A stretch of 64,000 bases of DNA from Parcubacteria group bacterium Gr01-1014_31 (lineage in GTDB: Bacteria; Patescibacteriota; Patescibacteriia; Buchananbacterales; GWA2-38-13): contig VMFR01000002.1 in NCBI GenBank assembly GCA_007376135.1, positions 156,870-220,869 on the forward strand, read 5' to 3'. The notes beneath the pieces are model-generated. The model did no database searches and was not told where the DNA came from. It saw only the letters and a program-made list of their open reading frames with translations. Positions within the stretch are counted from its first letter, which is position 1. Each line of letters opens with the position of its first letter. Position numbers and translations under genes: made by a program. Shown piece by piece: positions 1,069 through 60,841 of this stretch.

Positions 1069-2046
1069 ATGGCAAGGGTGCATTCCCACACGTTGCCGGA
1101 ATTACTTGCCCGTCGGCGCGTCCTCGTGGTTGGGGACGCGATTTTGGATGTCGCCTATCATGGCCGCGCGCTGGGTCCGTCGGTGGAAAATCCCGCGGTC
1201 ACCACCTACGCGAACGAACGCATTGCCTACTCCTACGGCGGCGCCAGCCTGGTGGCGCGCAATCTGCTGGCGCTGGGCGCGGCGGCGGACTACGTGACCG
1301 TGCTGGGCGATGATGCGAATTTGGAGAAGTGCCGCGCGTTCTCCTACCCGCGGCTGCGTTTCAACACCAAGGTGATTGAATCGGGCCGGGTGAATACCGT
1401 GAAAGAACGGTTCTGGGCCGGCAGCACGCTGGTGTTCAAATGGGATTTCCGCGATGACCGCGACATCGGCGCAGGAGCGCAGCGCAAAATGCTTTCCGCG
1501 GTACGCCAACGGCTGCGCGGCGCAGTGGCGCTGGTCATCGCCGACAACCGCCACGGCGTGCTGGCCGGCGCGGTCATTCCACAGTTGCTCGCCGCGGCCA
1601 AGCGCGCCAAGGTCCCGGTGTACGTGGATTCGCAGGTGACCGCGTCGCGGCCAAGCAACCATCAAAGCTACCGGGGCGCGGACGTCATCTGCCTCAACCT
1701 GAAAGAAGCCCAGGCGGTGTCTCCGGCGTTCCAGCCAGAGCGCGCCGAGCAGGATTTGTGGGAGATCGCCGAGAACTTGGGAGCCACCACGGTCGTCGTC
1801 AAACTCGGCGAACAGGGTTCCGTTGCTCTGGCGAACGGGGAATTCATCAGAACTCCCGCCTTCCGCGTTTCCGCCATGGATGCGGTTGGCGCCGGGGATG
1901 CGTTCATCGCGGCACTGGCAGCAGCGCACGGCACTTCTTGGGTAACAGCGCTGGCGTTCGCCAACCGCTGGGCCGCGCTGTCCACGACCGTGCGCGGGCC
2001 AAATCCCCCAACATTGGAAGCATTTCGTCAATCGCTTGCCGATTGA
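1069..2046 (+). CDS. PfkB-family carbohydrate kinase (HldE domain I-like, sugar-7-phosphate kinase)
   Basis: PfkB signature DAVGAGDAF near C-terminus and an N-terminal GD...LD..Y motif. Starts 5 bp after the upstream stop. Confidence 0.75.
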   Translation: MARVHSHTLPELLARRRVLVVGDAILDVAYHGRALGPSVENPAVTTYANERIAYSYGGASLVARNLLALGAAADYVTVLGDDANLEKCRAFSYPRLRFNTKVIESGRVNTVKERFWAGSTLVFKWDFRDDRDIGAGAQRKMLSAVRQRLRGAVALVIADNRHGVLAGAVIPQLLAAAKRAKVPVYVDSQVTASRPSNHQSYRGADVICLNLKEAQAVSPAFQPERAEQDLWEIAENLGATTVVVKLGEQGSVALANGEFIRTPAFRVSAMDAVGAGDAFIAALAAAHGTSWVTALAFANRWAALSTTVRGPNPPTLEAFRQSLAD

Positions 2047-2090: not shown

Positions 2091-2861
2091 ATGTACGGTT
2101 ACGACGCCAGTAAACTGGAACAGTTCATCACCGCGCCGCGGGAGCAGCCGGCCGATTTCGGCGTACAGCGCGACATCGTCGCCACGCCCCACTACTCGAT
2201 GCGGCAGTTTGCTCTCAAGGCCGGCGGCGTTCTGCCGCCCCGCCAGCATGAGCGGCCAGTGACCTTGTACGTGGAAACGGGCGTAGTCTCGGTGATTTCC
2301 GGCACCGGCGAGGTTTCCGTACCGGCCGGGAAGCTGATTGAAATCCCCGCAGGAAATACCTACGCTGTGGAAGCTAAGGCACCGTCGGTGGTCTATAGTT
2401 TTGCCTATCCAAATCATTCCGGCGAACGTATACTGAAAGAGCGCGGCGGGAAGTCCGCACCGCTGACGACCCAGGAACCGGCTGACCGGCGGGAAAAGTA
2501 TTGGGGCGATATCTGCACCATCGCCAGCGAGGAGGTCGCCGGCAAGCGCCTGTTCCTGAAAGCCGGCAGCCATGGTTCGATGGAGTTCCACGTCCGCAAG
2601 CACGAAAGCTACTACGTGCATTCGGGGGAACTGGCGCTGCTGCTGCGCGCCGGCCGGGCCGAGAACCGCCTCTTCCGCGTTCCTGCGGGCAAAGCCGTGG
2701 CGATGCCGCCGGGCCTGATGCACCAGCGCGGAGCGATCCTGGATACCGTGTTGCTCGAGATTTCCACCCGCGACGAGGACAGCGATTCGTTCCTGGTGGA
2801 AGATGGCGCCGTTTCGCCGATGAAAGGATTCAATGAACTTATCAAAGAACTTAGTATCTAG
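2091..2861 (+). CDS. Bicupin-domain protein (putative sugar-phosphate isomerase/epimerase)
   Basis: Two cupin-like beta-barrel segments (GVVSVISGTGEV..., FHVRKHESYYVHSGELALL). Start chosen at MYGYD (2091) inside the longer ORF 1758..2861. Confidence 0.55.
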   Translation: MYGYDASKLEQFITAPREQPADFGVQRDIVATPHYSMRQFALKAGGVLPPRQHERPVTLYVETGVVSVISGTGEVSVPAGKLIEIPAGNTYAVEAKAPSVVYSFAYPNHSGERILKERGGKSAPLTTQEPADRREKYWGDICTIASEEVAGKRLFLKAGSHGSMEFHVRKHESYYVHSGELALLLRAGRAENRLFRVPAGKAVAMPPGLMHQRGAILDTVLLEISTRDEDSDSFLVEDGAVSPMKGFNELIKELSI

Positions 2862-5128: not shown

Positions 5129-5632
5129 ATGGTAGCAGAAAAACGGCAGACCATCGACCAACTGGCGAAGGTCGTTGCCGACCTCAAACGCGCGGGCAAG
5201 ACCGTCGTGACGACCAACGGCGTATATGACGTGCTGCATGTGGGTCACGTCCGGCTACTGGAGCAGGCAAAAAATCTGGGCGACGCGCTGGTGGTGCTGC
5301 TAAACTCCGACCGCTCCACGCGCGAGCTGAAGGGCGAAAAGCGCCCCATTGTTCCCGAGGACGAACGGGCGGAAATGGTGGCCGCGCTCGGGTGTGTGGA
5401 TTACGTCGCGATTTTTGACGACCTGCGGCCGGACGCGGCGCTGGGAAAACTCGCGCCGCAGGTGCACGTGAAAGGCGGCGACTACACGCCCGCCCAGATC
5501 CAGCCGGGCGAACGCGCGACCATTGAAGGCGGCGGCGGCAAGGTCGTCGTACTCCCGTTGACCCCCGGCCGGTCGGTGAGCGACCTGGTGGAAAAGATCC
5601 TGGCCACGGCGCCCCGAAAAGTAAAAAGTTAA
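5129..5632 (+). CDS. HldE-domain-II-like nucleotidyltransferase (heptose-1-phosphate adenylyltransferase-like), second paralog
   Basis: NGVYDVLHVGHVRLL HxGH motif, LNSDRSTRELKGEKRPIVPEDER and VHVKGGDYTP. ATG at 5129 inside ORF 5012..5632. Confidence 0.75.
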   Translation: MVAEKRQTIDQLAKVVADLKRAGKTVVTTNGVYDVLHVGHVRLLEQAKNLGDALVVLLNSDRSTRELKGEKRPIVPEDERAEMVAALGCVDYVAIFDDLRPDAALGKLAPQVHVKGGDYTPAQIQPGERATIEGGGGKVVVLPLTPGRSVSDLVEKILATAPRKVKS

Positions 5633-9330: not shown

Positions 9331-9700
9331 GGGAGCGTTTAAAATCGCTAACGTTCACAACCGGCGCCTAACTGTTTCCACAGCTCCCGACCGCGACGGA
9401 TTGCGGTGCAGGAAAAACAGTGGCATCTGATAGCGGAGACCGTGGCGTAACTGCCAAACCCTCCGCCGCCCTATCAGGTTCCTCTGTTTTTTCTTCACCC
9501 AAAATGGTGAAGGAAAACGGACGTTGACAACTGAAACGTGGTAGGAACAACCACTGTTGTCCCGCTTCGGCGGGGCAACAGCCTACAGTCAATTCCTTTT
9601 TTGTCGGCTCCCATCGGGGGCCGGCAGAGGCTGGTTTCTGAAGCTATCTTTCAGCCTGCTTCGCCACTCGGCGAAGCTATCAATAAAAGAGCTTTCACTT

Positions 9701-11190
<1,490 letters not shown>

Positions 11191-12341: not shown

Positions 12342-13733
12342 ATGGTCACCTCTGCCAGCGATATTCCGAAAAATTCGGCGCTTTCTGCCGATCTGTGCAT
12401 CATCGGTTCCGGTCCGGCGGGGTTGTCGCTGGCGCTGGAGTACAGGGGCCGGGGCGAGAAGGTCTGCGTCCTGGAAGGCGGCGAGCGGGAGCCGAATGCC
12501 GACGCGCAAGCGCTGAACGATTTGGAAGTGGACGCCCAGCCGGTTTCCCTCAAATCGCGGCTGCGCGTACTGGGCGGCACGGGCAAAGCGTGGCGCGGGC
12601 TGTGGAAACCGCATGATGCAATAGATTTTTCGGCGCGGCCGTGGGTGCCCCAGAGCGGGTGGCCGTTTTCGCGGGAAACCGTGGCGCCGTACTACGCGCG
12701 CGCGGCAAAATTGTTCCATGCGCCGGCGGCGGCCGACTTTCCCGCCGGCGGCCTCCTGGATTCTCCGCGGCTGGCCACAGCTCCGCTGTTCCGGCTGCAG
12801 GACGCGGATTTGGACCTGGCGGCCAAGTACGGGCCGGAGCTGGAACAGTCGAAGAATATCACGGTGTACGTGGGGGCAAACGTCGTGCGGCTGCAAACTG
12901 ATGGCAACGGTGTGCACGCCGCGCACGTTGAAGTCAGGACTTTAGGCGGCAACGCGTTTACCGTTGCGGCAAAACAATTCGTTCTCGCTTGCGGCGGGAT
13001 TGAAAATGCGCGGCTGTTGCTCCACTCCCATGTCGGCAACGGAAACGTCGGCGCATATTACCAGGATCACCCGAAGGGCGTTTGCGGCGTACTGACGGCC
13101 AGCAAACCGGTCCGCTGGCCGGCCTACTGGGGGAAAAATTCCGGTGTGTGGTGGATGAAGGCCGGGCTGCGGCTGCCGGATTCCGTGCAGCAGCGCGAGC
13201 AGGTACTCAACAGCTTCATTACGCTGGAGCCGGAATTCGGCAAACTCGGCAAATTCGGGAAAAAGTACCTCGGACATACGCCGGCGGTCCGAATCATCCG
13301 CGTTCGCAATTATCTGGAGCAAGCGCCCGTTTCCGGCAATCGCGTGACGCTGAGCGGCAAGGTTGACCAATTTGGCAACCCGATTGCAAAGATCACCTGG
13401 TCGCTGTCGGAGTTGGATAAAAGAACAATGGTTGTTTTTCACCGCATCCTTAAAGAAGAGTTTGCCGCCCGCGGTATCGGCAAGTTCCGCAGTCCCCTGC
13501 TTGATGGCGGCAAGGATTTTCCGGTCTTCACGGACGCATCGCACCACATGGGTACAACCCGCATGGGGACCGACCCGCACACTGCCGTCGTGGATGCGGA
13601 CTGCAAACTCCACGGCGTGGACAACGTCTTTATCGCCGGCAGCTCGGTCTTCCCGACCAGCGGCTACGCCAACCCGAATGCGACGATTGTTGCGTTGGCC
13701 ATCCGGTTGGCAGACTATCTAATTAGAACGTAA
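12342..13733 (+). CDS. GMC-family FAD-dependent oxidoreductase
   Basis: N-terminal Rossmann motif DLCIIGSGPAG and C-terminal GMC signature (H...GTTRMG...VVD...HGV.N.FIAGSSVFP). Confidence 0.8.
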   Translation: MVTSASDIPKNSALSADLCIIGSGPAGLSLALEYRGRGEKVCVLEGGEREPNADAQALNDLEVDAQPVSLKSRLRVLGGTGKAWRGLWKPHDAIDFSARPWVPQSGWPFSRETVAPYYARAAKLFHAPAAADFPAGGLLDSPRLATAPLFRLQDADLDLAAKYGPELEQSKNITVYVGANVVRLQTDGNGVHAAHVEVRTLGGNAFTVAAKQFVLACGGIENARLLLHSHVGNGNVGAYYQDHPKGVCGVLTASKPVRWPAYWGKNSGVWWMKAGLRLPDSVQQREQVLNSFITLEPEFGKLGKFGKKYLGHTPAVRIIRVRNYLEQAPVSGNRVTLSGKVDQFGNPIAKITWSLSELDKRTMVVFHRILKEEFAARGIGKFRSPLLDGGKDFPVFTDASHHMGTTRMGTDPHTAVVDADCKLHGVDNVFIAGSSVFPTSGYANPNATIVALAIRLADYLIRT

Positions 13734-23818: not shown

Positions 23819-24055
23819 GCTCCTATCCATACATAGCAATTGTACGGAGGGGAGTTGCAGCTGGTCAATGCGGCGGTGACGTTGACAGTCTGCGGATTTT
23901 ATGGAATGATGAGTGAACATTTTTCCCGCTTGAAGTTGTTCCGCTGACCCTGCTATAGTGCAGGCGTTCCCGTTTTTCCGGCAGTGGCTGTGGTGGTGTG
24001 TCCTCTTCGAATGACGGGACGATTCCCTCTTTGTTATTTTTTTGCATCCTTTGGT

Positions 24056-24113
24056 GGGCGCGTAGCTCAGTTGGTTATCCCGCCCCACGGCGGGACAGGG
24101 AGCGCGTCACTGA
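24056..24113 (+). pseudogene. 5' portion (tRNA positions 1-35) of an interrupted second tRNA-Ile copy, with a 20-22-nt GC hairpin inserted in the D-loop
   Basis: gggcgcgtagctcagttggtta + [tcccgccccacggcgggacagg] + gagcgcgtcactga. With the insert removed it is identical to positions 1-35 of the intact tRNA-Ile 70 bp downstream. Confidence 0.7.
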
Positions 24114-24182
24114 CCCGCCTGCCGGAGTACGGAGTCTTTAATAATGTAATATCTATTCCCCATTCCATCGTTTGTTGCTGTT

Positions 24183-24259
24183 GGGCGCGTAGCTCAGTTG
24201 GTTAGAGCGCGTCACTGATAATGACGAGGTCCCTGGTTCGACTCCAGGCGCGCCCACCA
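24183..24259 (+). tRNA. tRNA-Ile (anticodon GAT), CCA encoded
   Basis: Cloverleaf gggcgcg/cgcgccc acceptor, anticodon loop cTGATaa, T-loop ttcgact, discriminator A + CCA. Confidence 0.85.
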
Positions 24260-24296
24260 GCAGCACGTGATGGGGTGACTCCGTACGGCGGGCAGG

Positions 24297-24359
24297 TAAT
24301 GACGAGGTCCCTGGTTTTTACCCCGTCGAATGGCGGGGCGACTCCAGGCGCGCCCACCA
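24297..24359 (+). pseudogene. 3' portion (positions 36-76) of the interrupted tRNA-Ile copy, with a 22-nt GC hairpin inserted in the T-loop
   Basis: taatgacgaggtccctggtt + [tttaccccgtcgaatggcgggg] + cgactccaggcgcgcccacca. Identical to the intact gene once the insert is removed. Confidence 0.7.
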
Positions 24360-26781: not shown

Positions 26782-26798
26782 TTTCAAATTTTTCGTTT

Positions 26799-26875
26799 CG
26801 TGGGTTTCCCGCCACCGTAATGTAATTTATTACGAGGGCGGGACCTCCCGCCAACGGCGGGATGGCAAATCCCAC
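26799..26875 (+). repeat. Copy A of a ~80-bp hairpin repeat (gggtttcccgcc / AT-rich core / ggcgggacc / cccgccaacggcggg)
   Basis: Homologous block-for-block to 36296-36360. Shares the cccgccNNNNggcggg hairpin and the taatgtaat core with the tRNA-Ile locus (24078-24160). Confidence 0.65.
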
Positions 26876-26949
26876 CAGCCCGATTTTTTCTCCCGCATGT
26901 CCCGAGTGGTTTTTCACCGAGCTTCTCCGTTGGCTACTGAAGTGTTGCT

Positions 26950-30936: not shown

Positions 30937-31086
30937 AGTTTTCTCATTATACGGATTTGCCCCCGTCGCGGGCAAGCGCCCCTTGCCGCGGACGGTTTCG
31001 GGGTGTACCATAGGCGCTACCATCCACGTGCGAAGACTCGTGCTTTCTCCCGCCTACTAATTTTATAGGTATCTCCTCGTGCGAGA

Positions 31087-31157
31087 GCGGGTATTGTATA
31101 ATGGCATTACCTCAGCTTTCCAAGCTGATGACGCGGGTTCGATTCCCGCTACCCGCT
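31087..31157 (+). tRNA. tRNA-Gly (anticodon TCC), CCA not encoded
   Basis: Acceptor gcgggta/tacccgc, anticodon arm tcagc-ttTCCaa-gctga, T-arm gcggg-ttcgatt-cccgc. The D-stem has one U-U mismatch, so the parse is moderately confident. Confidence 0.7.
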
Positions 31158-31202
31158 CTCGCACGAGGAAAGGAAGGTAGGCGGGATCCCGCCCGCGGCG
31201 AG

Positions 31203-31313
31203 ACAAGCTGATGACGCGGGTTCGTCCTATACCAGAGCAAAGCACAGTATAGGACGCCCTGTACCGTGTTCCGCAAAGCGGAACTCTGGTACTGGGGCGA
31301 TTCCCGCTACCCG
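31203..31313 (+). pseudogene. Second copy of the tRNA-Gly 3' half (positions 36-72), interrupted by a 75-nt structured insert in the T-loop (between 55 and 56)
   Basis: caagctgatgacgcgggtt + [cgtcctata...ctgggg] + cgattcccgctacccgc. Identical to the intact gene outside the insert; the insert has nested inverted repeats (ccagag...ctctgg, tcctatac...gtatagga, gttccgc...gcggaac). Confidence 0.65.
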
Positions 31314-31414
31314 CCTACATGAATACCGGCGCTGACGCGCCGGTTTTTGGTGAATAAAAAAAGCCCCGGCGGTTGTAGCAACCGCGCGGGGCCAACGGTG
31401 CGGAGCCAACGAGG

Positions 31415-35897: not shown

Positions 35898-36108
35898 TCT
35901 CCATTAGTGCCAGAAAATGCCGCGGTCTTCCGCGGCATTTTTGGTCCCCGTGGCTTGAAAAGCGGTATTTACGGTGGTACGCTGGGGCGTACCAAGTGTT
36001 TGGGCGCGTTTTGCCCCGCAAGGGAAGACCGCCAGTCGAGGAGCTGTCCATTCAACCTTTTACATCATGTCTTTGTCGCGGTGGTGGGCAACATTTTGAC
36101 CCCATTGA

Positions 36109-36136
36109 GGCCAGGTAGCCAAGTGGTAAGGCAACG
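36109..36136 (+). pseudogene. Isolated copy of tRNA-Cys positions 1-29 (5' fragment)
   Basis: ggccaggtagccaagtggtaaggcaacg is identical to the first 28 nt of the intact tRNA-Cys 54 bp downstream. Confidence 0.65.
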
Positions 36137-36189
36137 CGGCGTCACGCGTTAAAAATTTCTTTTCGTAGAGTCGCTTTTGGCGGCAGGGA

Positions 36190-36261
36190 GGCCAGGTAGC
36201 CAAGTGGTAAGGCAACGGTCTGCAAAACCGTTATTCACGGGTTCGATTCCCGTCCTGGCCT
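36190..36261 (+). tRNA. tRNA-Cys (anticodon GCA), CCA not encoded
   Basis: Acceptor ggccagg/cctggcc, anticodon arm acggt-cTGCAaa-accgt, T-arm acggg-ttcgatt-cccgt. Confidence 0.8.
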
Positions 36262-36295
36262 CCTTGCCGCCAACTTCGTTGTTGCGTATTGATGG

Positions 36296-36360
36296 ACGGG
36301 TTTCCCGCCTCCGAAATATTTTTTTAAGAAAGGAAGGCGGGACCCCGCCAACGGCGGTGG
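36296..36360 (+). repeat. Copy B of the ~80-bp hairpin repeat (gggtttcccgcc / AT core / ggcgggacc / ccgccaacggcgg)
   Basis: Block-for-block homology with 26799-26875. Abuts the tRNA-Cys 3' fragment. Confidence 0.65.
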
Positions 36361-36379
36361 CGATTCCCGTCCTGGCCTC
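36361..36379 (+). pseudogene. Isolated copy of the tRNA-Cys 3' end (T-loop position 56 to acceptor end)
   Basis: cgattcccgtcctggcctc is identical to the 3' 19 nt of the intact tRNA-Cys and starts exactly at T-loop position 56. Confidence 0.65.
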
Positions 36380-36507
36380 GGTGCGGTCAATCGCGGTCGC
36401 GGTTCGTGTAGGGGTTGGTCGGTCCTCAGTCTTGGAGGGCCGATTTTTATGTCAGGCTTGCGAAAAATGCCGTTTTCTGATATTCTCAAGCAGTCTTTAC
36501 GACCCCT

Positions 36508-43965: not shown

Positions 43966-43982
43966 TTGGTATGGCGAAAAAT

Positions 43983-44022
43983 AAAAACGTTCACCTGGCG
44001 GTGAACATCTTTCTGGTGCGCC
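43983..44022 (-). repeat. Distal copy of a 40-bp direct repeat (minus-strand terminator hairpin plus the last 9 nt of the tRNA-Lys 3' end), followed by a degenerate tRNA-like sequence with hairpin inserts
   Basis: aaaaacgttcacctggcggtgaacatctttctggtgcgcc is identical to 44188-44227. Confidence 0.6.
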
Positions 44023-44187
44023 TAGAGAGGATCGAAGTCGGTCCGATGCCCATCGGACCTCCCCATAGGGGCTTCCGCCCCTCTGGTGCTCGCTGCGCTC
44101 GCGGTCACCCCCGGCAATGCGGGGGAGTTTTTCCTCCCCCGCCACCCCCACGTTCGATTCCCTGGCGGATAAACATTGTTAATAAAG

Positions 44188-44227
44188 AAAAACGTTCACC
44201 TGGCGGTGAACATCTTTCTGGTGCGCC
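44188..44227 (-). repeat. Proximal copy of the 40-bp repeat: functional terminator (gttcaccgccaggtgaac + T-run on minus strand) plus the tRNA-Lys 3' end
   Basis: Identical to 43983-44022. Confidence 0.6.
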
Positions 44228-44294
44228 CAGAGGGAATCGAACCCCCAACCGTTGGCTTAAGAGGCCACTGCTCTGCCAATTGAGCTATGGGCGC
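44219..44294 (-). tRNA. tRNA-Lys (anticodon CTT), CCA encoded
   Basis: Reverse complement: gcgccca...anticodon loop cTCTTaa...ggttcgattccc...tgggcgc a cca. Confidence 0.8.
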
Positions 44295-44314: not shown

Positions 44315-44386
44315 TGCTCCCGGAGGGATTCGAACCCCCAACAACAGGTCCGAAGCCTGCTGTGATATCCATTTCACCACGGGAGC
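44315..44386 (-). tRNA. tRNA-Arg (anticodon TCG), CCA not encoded
   Basis: Reverse complement: gctcccg tg gtga...tcac a gcagg cTTCGGa cctgt ... ggggg ttcgaat ccctc cgggagc a. Confidence 0.75.
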
Positions 44387-44533
44387 GAAAGGCGGGAGCG
44401 ACCAGCGCGGACGGTACTTACATTCCCGGATAGTAGCGGAAAAATGCCGGTTCGTCAATCCTGAAGGTATGAAAACCCCGCGATCTTGTGGACCGCGGGG
44501 CGTGGAATGTGGGTGGAACCGAAGGAACGGAAA

Positions 44534-60620: not shown

Positions 60621-60841
60621 CAGAAAGTCATCACCGCCGTCGGCGGGATCCCGCGGCGGGAAAAGTCAAAAGTAAGGAAACGCGCCGCGGGCGCGTTTTT
60701 TTATAAAAAAGCCCCGGACACAGAGATCGCGTCCGGGGCTCCAAGGAGGACCATGCAGGTCCAATGGAAAGGGCGGGCCACCACAGGAGGAATAGAAAGG
60801 GATGGCAACTGATGATAATACTAGCGTCAGGACCGGCGCTG

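Follow-up and report, generated by a model that had tools for sequence, protein, structure and literature searches.

The tRNA-Lys Locus

We describe an element, here named X, that lies between two copies of the 3′ end of a tRNA-Lys gene in a 64,000-nucleotide (nt) stretch of contig VMFR01000002.1 from Parcubacteria group bacterium Gr01-1014_31 (the window, whose first letter is position 1). All features of interest at this locus are on the minus strand, where they follow one another in the order promoter, tRNA-Arg, tRNA-Lys, terminator, spacer, X (5′ arm, structured core and CGAC) and the distal copy of the tRNA 3′ end. The scan for promoters and terminators yielded a sigma-70-like promoter of the tRNA-Arg/tRNA-Lys operon (TTGACG-17-TACTAT, 44430-44458) and no further promoter-like site between 43880 and 44520, X being without a promoter of its own. 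Both tRNA genes, tRNA-Arg(TCG) (44315-44386; 65.7 bits) and tRNA-Lys(CTT) with its CCA encoded (44219-44294; 69 bits), are intact and were identified by ARAGORN and Rfam.

The repeat comparison revealed a 58-nt direct repeat, 93% identical between a proximal copy, D1 (44184-44241), and a distal copy, D2 (43979-44036), which lie 205 nt apart from start to start and are separated by 147 nt. Each copy comprises the 3′-terminal 23 nt of tRNA-Lys, beginning in the T-loop, followed by a terminator hairpin and U-run. In D1 the tRNA part is nt 54-76 of the intact gene (44219-44241) and the terminator is t1 (44188-44218), a hairpin at 44194-44211 with A/U flanks; in D2 the corresponding 23 nt (44014-44036) carry all four of the substitutions that distinguish the two copies, and terminator t2 (43983-44013) is identical to t1. 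The duplication had been recognized in the original prediction, which was made from the letters of this DNA, as a 40-nt unit (43983-44022 and 44188-44227); that unit is 100% identical between the copies and the duplication is real, although it extends further than was noted.

Past t1, an AT-rich spacer (44169-44183) leads to X itself, a structured element of approximately 130 nt (44037-44168). Its 5′ arm, CCGCCAGGGAAUCGAAC (44152-44168), is the reverse complement of the T-loop, the T-stem 3′ strand and the acceptor 3′ strand of tRNA-Lys, and includes a perfectly complementary inverted 12-nt copy of the T-arm (44152-44163 versus 44231-44242, 100%). Counted from its inner end, the arm pairs at 10 of 10 positions with D1 and at 9 of 10 with D2, and the P1 helix of the window reaches tRNA nt 71 and leaves a C-ACCA tail unpaired. 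The arm is followed by the G-run linker J1, GUGGGGGUG (44143-44151), of which RGGGG is conserved in the family described below, by hairpin A, GCGGGGGAG-GAAAAA-CUCCCCCGC (44119-44142), and by the linker AUUGCC together with the invariant GGGGGUGACC (44103-44118; family consensus GGGGUGAYMG). The position of hairpin B (44087-44102) is variable in sequence, being occupied by a GCGAGCG-type repeat in the window and by GUCC(C/U)GCC-AAC-GGCGGGAC in two other copies (contigs L005 and L033). It precedes the invariant core hairpin, CCAGAGGGGC-GGAA-GCCCCUAUGG(GGAG) (44059-44086), with its GNRA loop and internal G.A, and the segment at 44037-44058, which consists of hairpin C, GUCCGAUG-GG-CAUCGGAC, and the terminal CGAC of the element, directly abutting D2.

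The 147 nt between D1 and D2 contain no real open reading frame (ORF), and they fold far more stably than shuffled versions of themselves (z = -7.7 on the tRNA strand, -4.8 on the opposite strand). This interval had been read as a degenerate tRNA interrupted by GC hairpins, with a T-arm-like fragment on the plus strand. The three hairpins and the inverted T-arm copy are indeed present. The tRNA is not: neither ARAGORN nor Rfam model RF00005 calls a tRNA in 44014-44183, and in a k-mer comparison with tRNA-Lys the only matches are to its 3′-terminal 23 nt and, as an inverted 12-nt copy, to its T-arm, which limits the tRNA-derived sequence to the distal repeat and the arm of 12-17 nt. The hairpins were read on the wrong strand and are parts of X, 'ccccatagggg' corresponding to the invariant CCCCUAUGGGG and 'gggggagtttttcctccccc' to hairpin A, while the supposed plus-strand fragment exists as the 5′ arm of X on the minus strand.

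X Is a Widespread Family of Structured RNA Elements

A pattern representing the stretch of X common to the window and to the related genome L006, CCAGAGRGGCG-N(3-33)-GCCCCTATGGGG, was searched against metagenome contigs and matched 11 that are unrelated to one another. On nine of these, 10 copies share the same architecture, and the remaining two contigs (L028 and L029) carry a weaker variant that is differently closed. The order of elements is 5′ arm, RGGGG (J1), hairpin A, a short linker, GGGGUGAYMG, hairpin B, the core hairpin, hairpin C, (C)GAC and the 3′ flank, and the core can be written as GGGGUGAYMG...CCAGAGGGGCG-GNRA-GCCCCUAUGGGGAG...GAC. Within the family the core hairpin consists of CGCCAGAGGGGCG, a loop and then GCCCCUAUGGGGAG, the loops being GGAA, GAGA, GGCA, GGUA, GAAA and GCCA together with the pentaloops GAUAA and GAGGA, and these are GNRA-like on the tRNA strand only. 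Hairpins A and B are stable in every full-length member and differ in sequence, as illustrated for hairpin A by GGGGGAG/CUCCCCC, GAAAGGGGA/UCCCCUUUC, GCGGGAAAA/UUUUCCCGC and UUAAGGGAAAC/GUUUCCCUUAA. In hairpin A of contig L002, an independent assembly of another strain (ANAN16-1 sample), one pair is G.U on the minus strand, where the plus strand would give A.C.

The stable, sequence-variable hairpins, the GNRA loops confined to the tRNA strand and the G.U pair of L002 are hallmarks of a structured RNA read on the tRNA strand. More generally, X behaves as structured RNAs do, in that hairpins A and B and helix P1 stay paired despite sequence change, the loops are strand-specific and the fold of the window copy stands out from shuffled sequence. 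X is a widespread family of structured RNA elements, and apparently one that has not been described previously.

The family profile that we built is a sequence-only one (nhmmer), as the MAFFT alignment places hairpin A out of register and does not accommodate a single RNAalifold consensus. The profile recovers each copy with E values of 1e-12 to 1e-18, locates a single copy in the window (44059-44144, minus strand) and detects no further copies in the approximately 400 kb of sequence searched. No protein gene is common to the neighborhoods of X, and no copies were found in IMG/VR viral contigs, in a phage collection or in plasmids. Matches of 25 nt between the X core and IncP-1 plasmids consist of the GC hairpin only, lack the flanking core and were dismissed as chance.

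When Rfam 15 was searched over X in the window, in L025 and in seven other contigs, with hits retained to E ≤ 10, no family reached its threshold and there was no hit to a ribozyme, a group I or group II intron or a riboswitch. The sole group I hit, in L025, lies outside X in the upstream tRNA-Met(CAT) (5131-5337), a gene that was missed by ARAGORN and whose anticodon loop harbors a group I intron (RF00028; score at threshold, 50 bits). The closest family is RF02937, the Clostridiales-2 RNA, an orphan small RNA candidate of unknown function, which scores 19.8 bits in L025, 19.6 in L032 and 13.5 in the window, far below its gathering threshold of 58.6. It resembles the 5′ half of X in the order G-run, hairpin A, AAGGAGGGUGNNCAG, hairpin B and CGNC(A/G)A(A/G)GGG, and the invariant core hairpin of X with its GNRA cap, hairpin C and GAC all lie beyond the end of the model. 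Judging from this order of motifs, X and RF02937 are probably distant relatives, without X being a member of that family. We know of no reported tie between the Clostridiales-2 motif and duplicated tRNA 3′ ends. A hit to the Rhizobiales-2 RNA (RF01723; 19.1 bits, E = 2.8, threshold 40) is below threshold, is limited to the window and does not recur in other copies of X. Searches of the literature for X-like arrangements, the core strings, Clostridiales-2, partial-tRNA repeats, nested tRNAs and tRNA introns of the Candidate Phyla Radiation (CPR) returned nothing relevant.

Duplicated tRNA 3′ Ends Are Joined to X Where Complementarity to the Arm Begins

In six of the new contigs an intact tRNA precedes X on the same strand at a distance of 10-100 nt, the tRNAs being Met(CAT) (L025), Val (L026), Ala(GGC) (L027), Ser (L031), Leu (L033) and Ala(CGC) (L035). 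In all six, as at tRNA-Lys in the window, X is directly followed by a copy of the 3′ part of the neighboring tRNA, that is, by a D2. The start of D2 varies among the tRNA-linked copies from approximately tRNA nt 44 to nt 54, and its right end is variable as well. It coincides with the tRNA 3′ end in L025, L027 and L031, D2 includes the terminator in the window, L002, L005, L006 and L033, and it continues through the trailer into the start of a second arm in L026 (107 nt, of which 103 are identical), L033 and L035. The duplication therefore ranges from 23 to about 110 nt in length and its right end may lie inside the element, while the 5 nt upstream of D1 differ at every locus. In effect, the genome holds '1.x' tandem copies of a unit made up of the tRNA 3′ part, the trailer or terminator, the spacer, the arm and the core. 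In L033 a remnant of a second X of about 35 nt (arm, J1 and the start of hairpin A) is present approximately 100-170 nt downstream of D2, beyond the distal Leu copy and its terminator, which points to tandem units that were subsequently truncated.

The arm of X is the reverse complement of the tRNA 3′ part in the tRNA-linked copies. When duplex energies were calculated for all arms against all 3′ flanks, an arm's own flank was the best or second best partner in seven of the eight tRNA-linked copies with an intact arm. Pairing begins at the first nucleotide of D2 in each of the nine tRNA-linked copies scored and leaves an unpaired 3′ tail of 5 to 8 nt; the junction between core and duplicate thus appears to be set by base pairing and not by a fixed position in the tRNA. 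Against the functional copy (D1), the arm forms 10 of 10 pairs in eight of nine tRNA-linked copies. D1 and D2 differ within the first 10 positions at four loci (the window, L025, L031 and L030b), and the arm matches D1 in all four, from which it follows that complementarity between the arm and the working tRNA is maintained as D2 drifts. Although the numbers are small, these sequence comparisons favor the real tRNA, or the gene encoding it, as the relevant partner of the arm.

A direct repeat that begins in a T-loop and runs through the tRNA 3′ end and beyond is reminiscent of integration by a tyrosine integrase. Integrases that target tRNA genes use sublocations in the T-loop and the anticodon loop, and a repeat extending from the T-loop through the 3′ end is reportedly their classic identity block. 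As with attL and attR, the proximal copy at the X loci is intact, the distal one is redundant and many different tRNAs are used. The repeats might hence be the att sites of a larger island or prophage that entered the T-loop of tRNA-Lys and whose interior was deleted, X being a piece that lay beside attP. We consider such a scar improbable. In all nine tRNA-linked copies, which involve seven tRNA species and come from unrelated lineages, the repeats enclose nothing but the spacer and X, with no ORF; approximately 150 nt separate the repeats, and neither an integrase nor any other gene is found there, at tRNA-Lys or in the six other tRNA-linked contigs. Furthermore, the cargo is a structured RNA with an arm complementary to the repeat, the repeat is variable in length and contains a lineage-specific terminator, the core/repeat junction follows the arm pairing, and X has no match in the IMG/VR viral contigs or the phage collection.

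Conservation of the Locus in Related Genomes

The original prediction suggested a comparison with relatives, and the same arrangement was found in L002 and in the metagenome-assembled genomes (MAGs) L005 and L006 of GTDB; the closest GTDB genomes by YmdB include 'Patescibacteria group' MAGs. L001 (ENA contig ERZ27284378:k139_644634) has the same sequence as the window, and L002 has the layout of the window with strain-level substitutions. X is present at tRNA-Lys in both L005 and L006, for which YmdB is 94 and 71% identical, respectively. The terminators of these two genomes differ from one another and are identical within each genome, and accordingly the second terminator of L006 is a copy of its own first one and unlike that of the window. 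In L006 the inverted T-arm copy is altered to GGGAUCGAAC, which matches the T-loop of that genome, and CGCCAGAGGGGCG...GCCCCUAUGGGG is retained. At 71% YmdB identity neutral intergenic DNA would be unrecognizable, and as the interval persists in L006 the locus is conserved, X having been kept at tRNA-Lys for a long time. The three tRNA-derived pieces at tRNA-Lys evolve in concert.

The arrangement could in principle be an artifact in which a tandem tRNA array was collapsed or expanded, the outcome that was named beforehand as fatal to the original prediction, and short-read assemblies do end beside repeated tRNA loci of this population (L003, L036 and L037). Four independent assemblies (the window/L001, L002, L005 and L006) nevertheless agree on the architecture and show strain-level differences, and we give misassembly practically no credence. 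The reading of the original prediction, taken as a decayed tandem duplicate of tRNA-Lys invaded by GC hairpins, gains some support from the four substitutions in D2, from an extra 22-nt hairpin in the distal copy of L005 and L006 and from hairpin-invaded copies at other tRNA loci in the window. It is very improbable all the same, as no part of tRNA-Lys nt 1-53 is recognizable in 44037-44183, the interval is homologous to elements beside unrelated tRNAs, a transfer-messenger RNA (tmRNA) and mRNAs, and it is conserved in L006, in which neutral DNA would be scrambled.

The 22-nt hairpins are of the form (Y)UUR-CCCCGUC-loop-GRCGGGG and occur in L005 (7307-7328), in L006 (7286-7308) and, at another tRNA locus, in the window (24317-24338). 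In L005 and L006 the distal Lys copy has one inserted where its T-stem meets the acceptor strand, a position in which the window and L002 have none, and these hairpins look like small insertions that are tolerated only in redundant tRNA copies. L006 additionally contains, at 10600-10754 on the minus strand, a tRNA-Arg(TCG) with a partial copy about 45 nt downstream (...UUAAGCCCAAAGGUGUGGGGUGAAAAUCCCUCCGGGUGCA), the 5′ part of which resembles the anticodon/variable region of tRNA-Lys and the 3′ end of which is the acceptor strand of tRNA-Arg. A further relative, L045 (YmdB 87% identical), has a different allele of tRNA-Lys(CTT) after HU and no X (1430-2241). A 249-residue ORF without a Pfam match ends inside the 5′ end of this tRNA-Lys.

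X Copies without a tRNA Duplicate

The remaining copies of X are found in other genetic contexts. In L032, X (12558-13150, minus strand) is situated between smpB and ssrA, its hairpin C carries an insertion of about 90 nt and its terminal GAC abuts the mature 5′ end of the tmRNA. In L034 it is in a 5′ untranslated region (UTR) and ends at the ribosome-binding site. L030 contains two copies, at 1290-1420 (minus strand) and 2390-2500 (plus strand), in inverted, divergent orientation; they flank about 1 kb of DNA with antitoxin and PIN-like genes, and their arms pair with G-rich flanks that are similar to each other (AGGGAUGGGG).

Members of this kind bring to the fore the main rival to a mobile or duplicating unit, namely that X is a host non-coding RNA or a processing module cut from the tRNA operon transcript. 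D2 would then provide a closing helix and a tRNA-like 3′ terminus, the machinery that acts on tRNA ends would mature and protect X through this helix and the single-stranded CACCA, and copies elsewhere would do the same job; alternatively, the arm would regulate the tRNA or its precursor. A host RNA accommodates the retention of X at tRNA-Lys in genomes with 71-100% YmdB identity, where the arm follows the sequence of the tRNA and is conserved against the functional gene better than D2 is, and it also accommodates the P1 helix of the window to nt 71 with its C-ACCA tail. The two members that lack a duplicate fit as well, one lying immediately 5′ of the mature end of a tmRNA and the other immediately 5′ of a ribosome-binding site, and a core that is conserved across AT-rich and GC-rich genomes while its hairpins have diverged suggests an old, selected sequence and not a recent spread. 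What this explanation leaves unaccounted for is why, for at least seven different tRNAs in unrelated lineages, the core came to be joined to an exact copy of the tRNA's own 3′ part, why duplicates reach about 100 nt into the trailer and the arm, and why X is missing from the close relative L045, and the unpaired tail of 5 to 8 nt would be an imperfect mimic of an acceptor end. On balance we regard the host RNA as the somewhat less likely explanation.

Comparison with Mobile Elements and tRNA-Like RNAs

X has features in common with several known systems and differs from each of them. It differs from classical transposons and miniature inverted-repeat transposable elements in that its duplication is not of fixed length and its arm is complementary to the flank and not to the other end of the element. 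It differs from the guide RNAs of the IS200/IS605 group (TnpB/IscB omega RNA) in having no protein gene and no fixed motif upstream of D1. RNAs with tRNA-like ends, such as tmRNA, the tRNA-like structures of plant viruses and the 3′ tags of Neurospora retroplasmids, are similar in that X plus D2 ends in a helix followed by the ACCA of a tRNA, and one member of the family is fused to the 5′ end of a tmRNA. Unlike these, the T-loop of D2 is paired to the arm of X, which leaves no T-arm and a single-stranded tail of 5-8 nt. Neither a tmRNA nor a two-piece tmRNA was found in the window by ARAGORN and Rfam. The hairpin ribozyme, the fold of the hepatitis delta virus ribozyme, group II domain 5/6 and integron attC sites were compared by eye and set aside because helix order or conserved nucleotides do not fit, and none gave an Rfam hit.

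The pairing of group II introns through exon- and intron-binding sites (EBS/IBS), and that of R2 elements, in which target rRNA sequence forms part of the ribozyme helix, is analogous, as a segment of X pairs with the flank of the insertion site and the pairing defines the junction. X ends in ...AC where group II introns end in AY. In contrast to both systems, X is only about 130 nt long and lacks a reverse transcriptase, and its guide pairs with the downstream flank and differs from copy to copy. A further possibility is that X represents a novel class of small, protein-less, RNA-guided mobile RNA, perhaps a ribozyme, whose arm would pair with the T-arm and acceptor 3′ strand of a tRNA or its precursor and whose ...GAC end would be joined to the first paired nucleotide. 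The products would be unit-length, possibly circular RNAs composed of the tRNA 3′ part, the arm and the core, and copying of these into DNA would leave '1.x' tandem units. The traces expected from such a cycle are a structure-defined junction, an arm that is faithful to the functional tRNA copy and repeats extending back into that arm. We consider an RNA-guided cycle of this type distinctly unlikely.

Other tRNA Loci and the Genomic Setting

The bacterium is a member of the CPR/Patescibacteria with a G+C content of 61%. The window includes a 16S rRNA gene (9695-11188), and the genes flanking the tRNA-Lys locus encode ClpP, RNase Y, YmdB, HU, PilT and RNase III. The earlier view that several tRNA loci in this region are partly self-duplicated holds for those of tRNA-Ile, tRNA-Pro, tRNA-Gly and tRNA-Cys, and these four carry insertion/duplication modules that are different from X.

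At the Ile locus (24052-24359, plus strand), an intact tRNA-Ile(GAT) (24183-24259) is nested inside an outer tRNA-Ile. The pieces of the outer gene at 24056-24077, 24100-24113, 24297-24316 and 24339-24359 correspond to nt 1-22, 23-36, 37-56 and 57-77 of the inner gene with 100% identity, and three insertions separate them, namely 22-nt hairpins in the D-loop and in the T-loop and, between anticodon nt 35/36, a 183-nt insert. The ends of this insert are inverted repeats, and it contains an AT-rich stretch in addition to the inner tRNA-Ile; in both the outer and the inner gene pairing between leader and trailer extends the acceptor stem. An archaeal-type bulge-helix-bulge intron was considered here and rejected, as inspection by eye gives a 1-nt bulge, a 3-bp helix and a 4-nt bulge in place of 3-4-3 and the genome is bacterial (ClpP, RNase Y, HU, RNase III). 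The protein encoded beside this locus has homologs of at most 43% identity. Contig L003 ends after HU and contigs L036 and L037 end just past the outer tRNA-Ile, as would be expected if the repeats break assemblies.

The distal copies at the Pro, Cys and Gly loci are partial, with sequence inserted into the T-loop or the anticodon loop. These loci share a second type of module, UCCCGCC...AU-rich...GGCGGGA-CCCGCC-AAC-GGCGGG, and a 5′ flank complementary to the distal tRNA piece. The Gly locus (31020-31316, plus strand) has a tRNA-Gly(TCC) (31087-31158) flanked by a perfect 13-nt leader/trailer inverted repeat, and a distal copy in which nt 35-55 (31204-31224) and nt 54-70 (31298-31314) are separated by a 73-nt T-loop insertion; judging from remnants upstream, an outer 5′ half that ended in ...CUUUC at anticodon nt 35 seems to have been deleted. 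At the Cys locus (36094-36390, plus strand), tRNA-Cys(GCA) (36190-36263) is preceded by a copy of its nt 1-28 (36109-36136) and followed by a T-arm/acceptor copy (36361-36379) that comes after an insertion of about 60 nt, UCCCGCC...AU-rich...GGCGGGA-CCCCGCC-AAC-GGCGG, and GGACGGG in its 5′ flank is the complement of CCCGUCC in the distal piece. At the Pro locus (26782-26886, plus strand, in the window and 2300-2420 in L037), tRNA-Pro(TGG) is followed by a diverged T-arm/acceptor copy whose T-loop is split by a module of this second type, as at the Cys locus. The distal T-stem shows a compensatory change from GCGGG/CCCGC to GUGGG/CCCAC, and the architecture recurs in a second strain with a few substitutions. 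A hairpin of the second-module type, GGGAUCCCGCC-GA-CGGCGG, is also present between genes at 60630-60660 (minus strand) with no adjoining tRNA. The idea that the 'CCCGCC' GC hairpin is itself mobile was abandoned, as CCCCGCC-loop-GGCGGGG occurs at many ordinary, terminator-like intergenic sites in the window and such a motif cannot serve as a diagnostic by itself. In this genome tRNA genes are thus found systematically within insertion/duplication modules, among which that of the Lys locus represents the X family.

X as a Proposed tRNA-Associated Insertion/Duplication Unit

We propose, with moderate confidence and from comparative sequence analysis, that X may be a tRNA-associated, protein-less insertion/duplication unit that is co-transcribed with the tRNA operon. 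X would land in or beside the T-arm region of a tRNA gene and would carry or generate a replacement 3′ end, such that D1 completes a working tRNA-Lys, the host loses nothing and D2 is redundant, while the base-pairing arm would fix the junction. Expression would occur by read-through of t1 from the promoter of the tRNA operon and would end at t2. A protein gene of its own would not be needed, any movement being brought about by host or trans-acting enzymes or by the RNA chemistry of X. In the lineage with X at tRNA-Lys, long inheritance at this gene may have been accompanied by gene conversion or template switching that keeps the repeats and the arm concordant with the tRNA. The X-less tRNA-Lys of the relative at 87% YmdB identity supports the proposal.

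Several observations weigh against it. The variable right end of the duplication is not that of a classical target-site duplication, and the same picture could arise from a tandem duplication with later deletion or simply from gene conversion. A clean pair of filled and empty sites of the same tRNA allele was not found, the L045 allele being a different one, and terminator t1 stands between tRNA-Lys and X. Retention at tRNA-Lys across 71% YmdB identity is no less compatible with a useful RNA than with a selfish one. The invariance of the core was imposed by the search pattern, and the core stem yields no evidence from covariation. Finally, both the arm pairing and the duplicate are absent from the tmRNA leader of L032 and the 5′ UTR of L034; X is therefore not restricted to tRNAs and can occur as an ordinary cis-acting or leader RNA, and its primary role is perhaps a host function.

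If this description is correct, a conserved RNA module with a copy-specific arm complementary to the neighboring tRNA recurs between duplicated tRNA 3′ ends in several bacterial lineages, including the CPR/Patescibacteria, and an orphan class of Clostridiales-2-like motifs would gain a function-linked context. It would also explain a type of 'partial tRNA' that annotation pipelines label as pseudogenes or att scars. X would then be a tractable candidate for an RNA that recognizes tRNAs or tRNA genes by pairing and without a dedicated protein, be it as a mobile element, a tRNA regulator or a ribozyme, and the embedded tRNA genes of this genome bear on the question of how reduced genomes keep single-copy tRNA genes functional when these same genes serve as landing sites.

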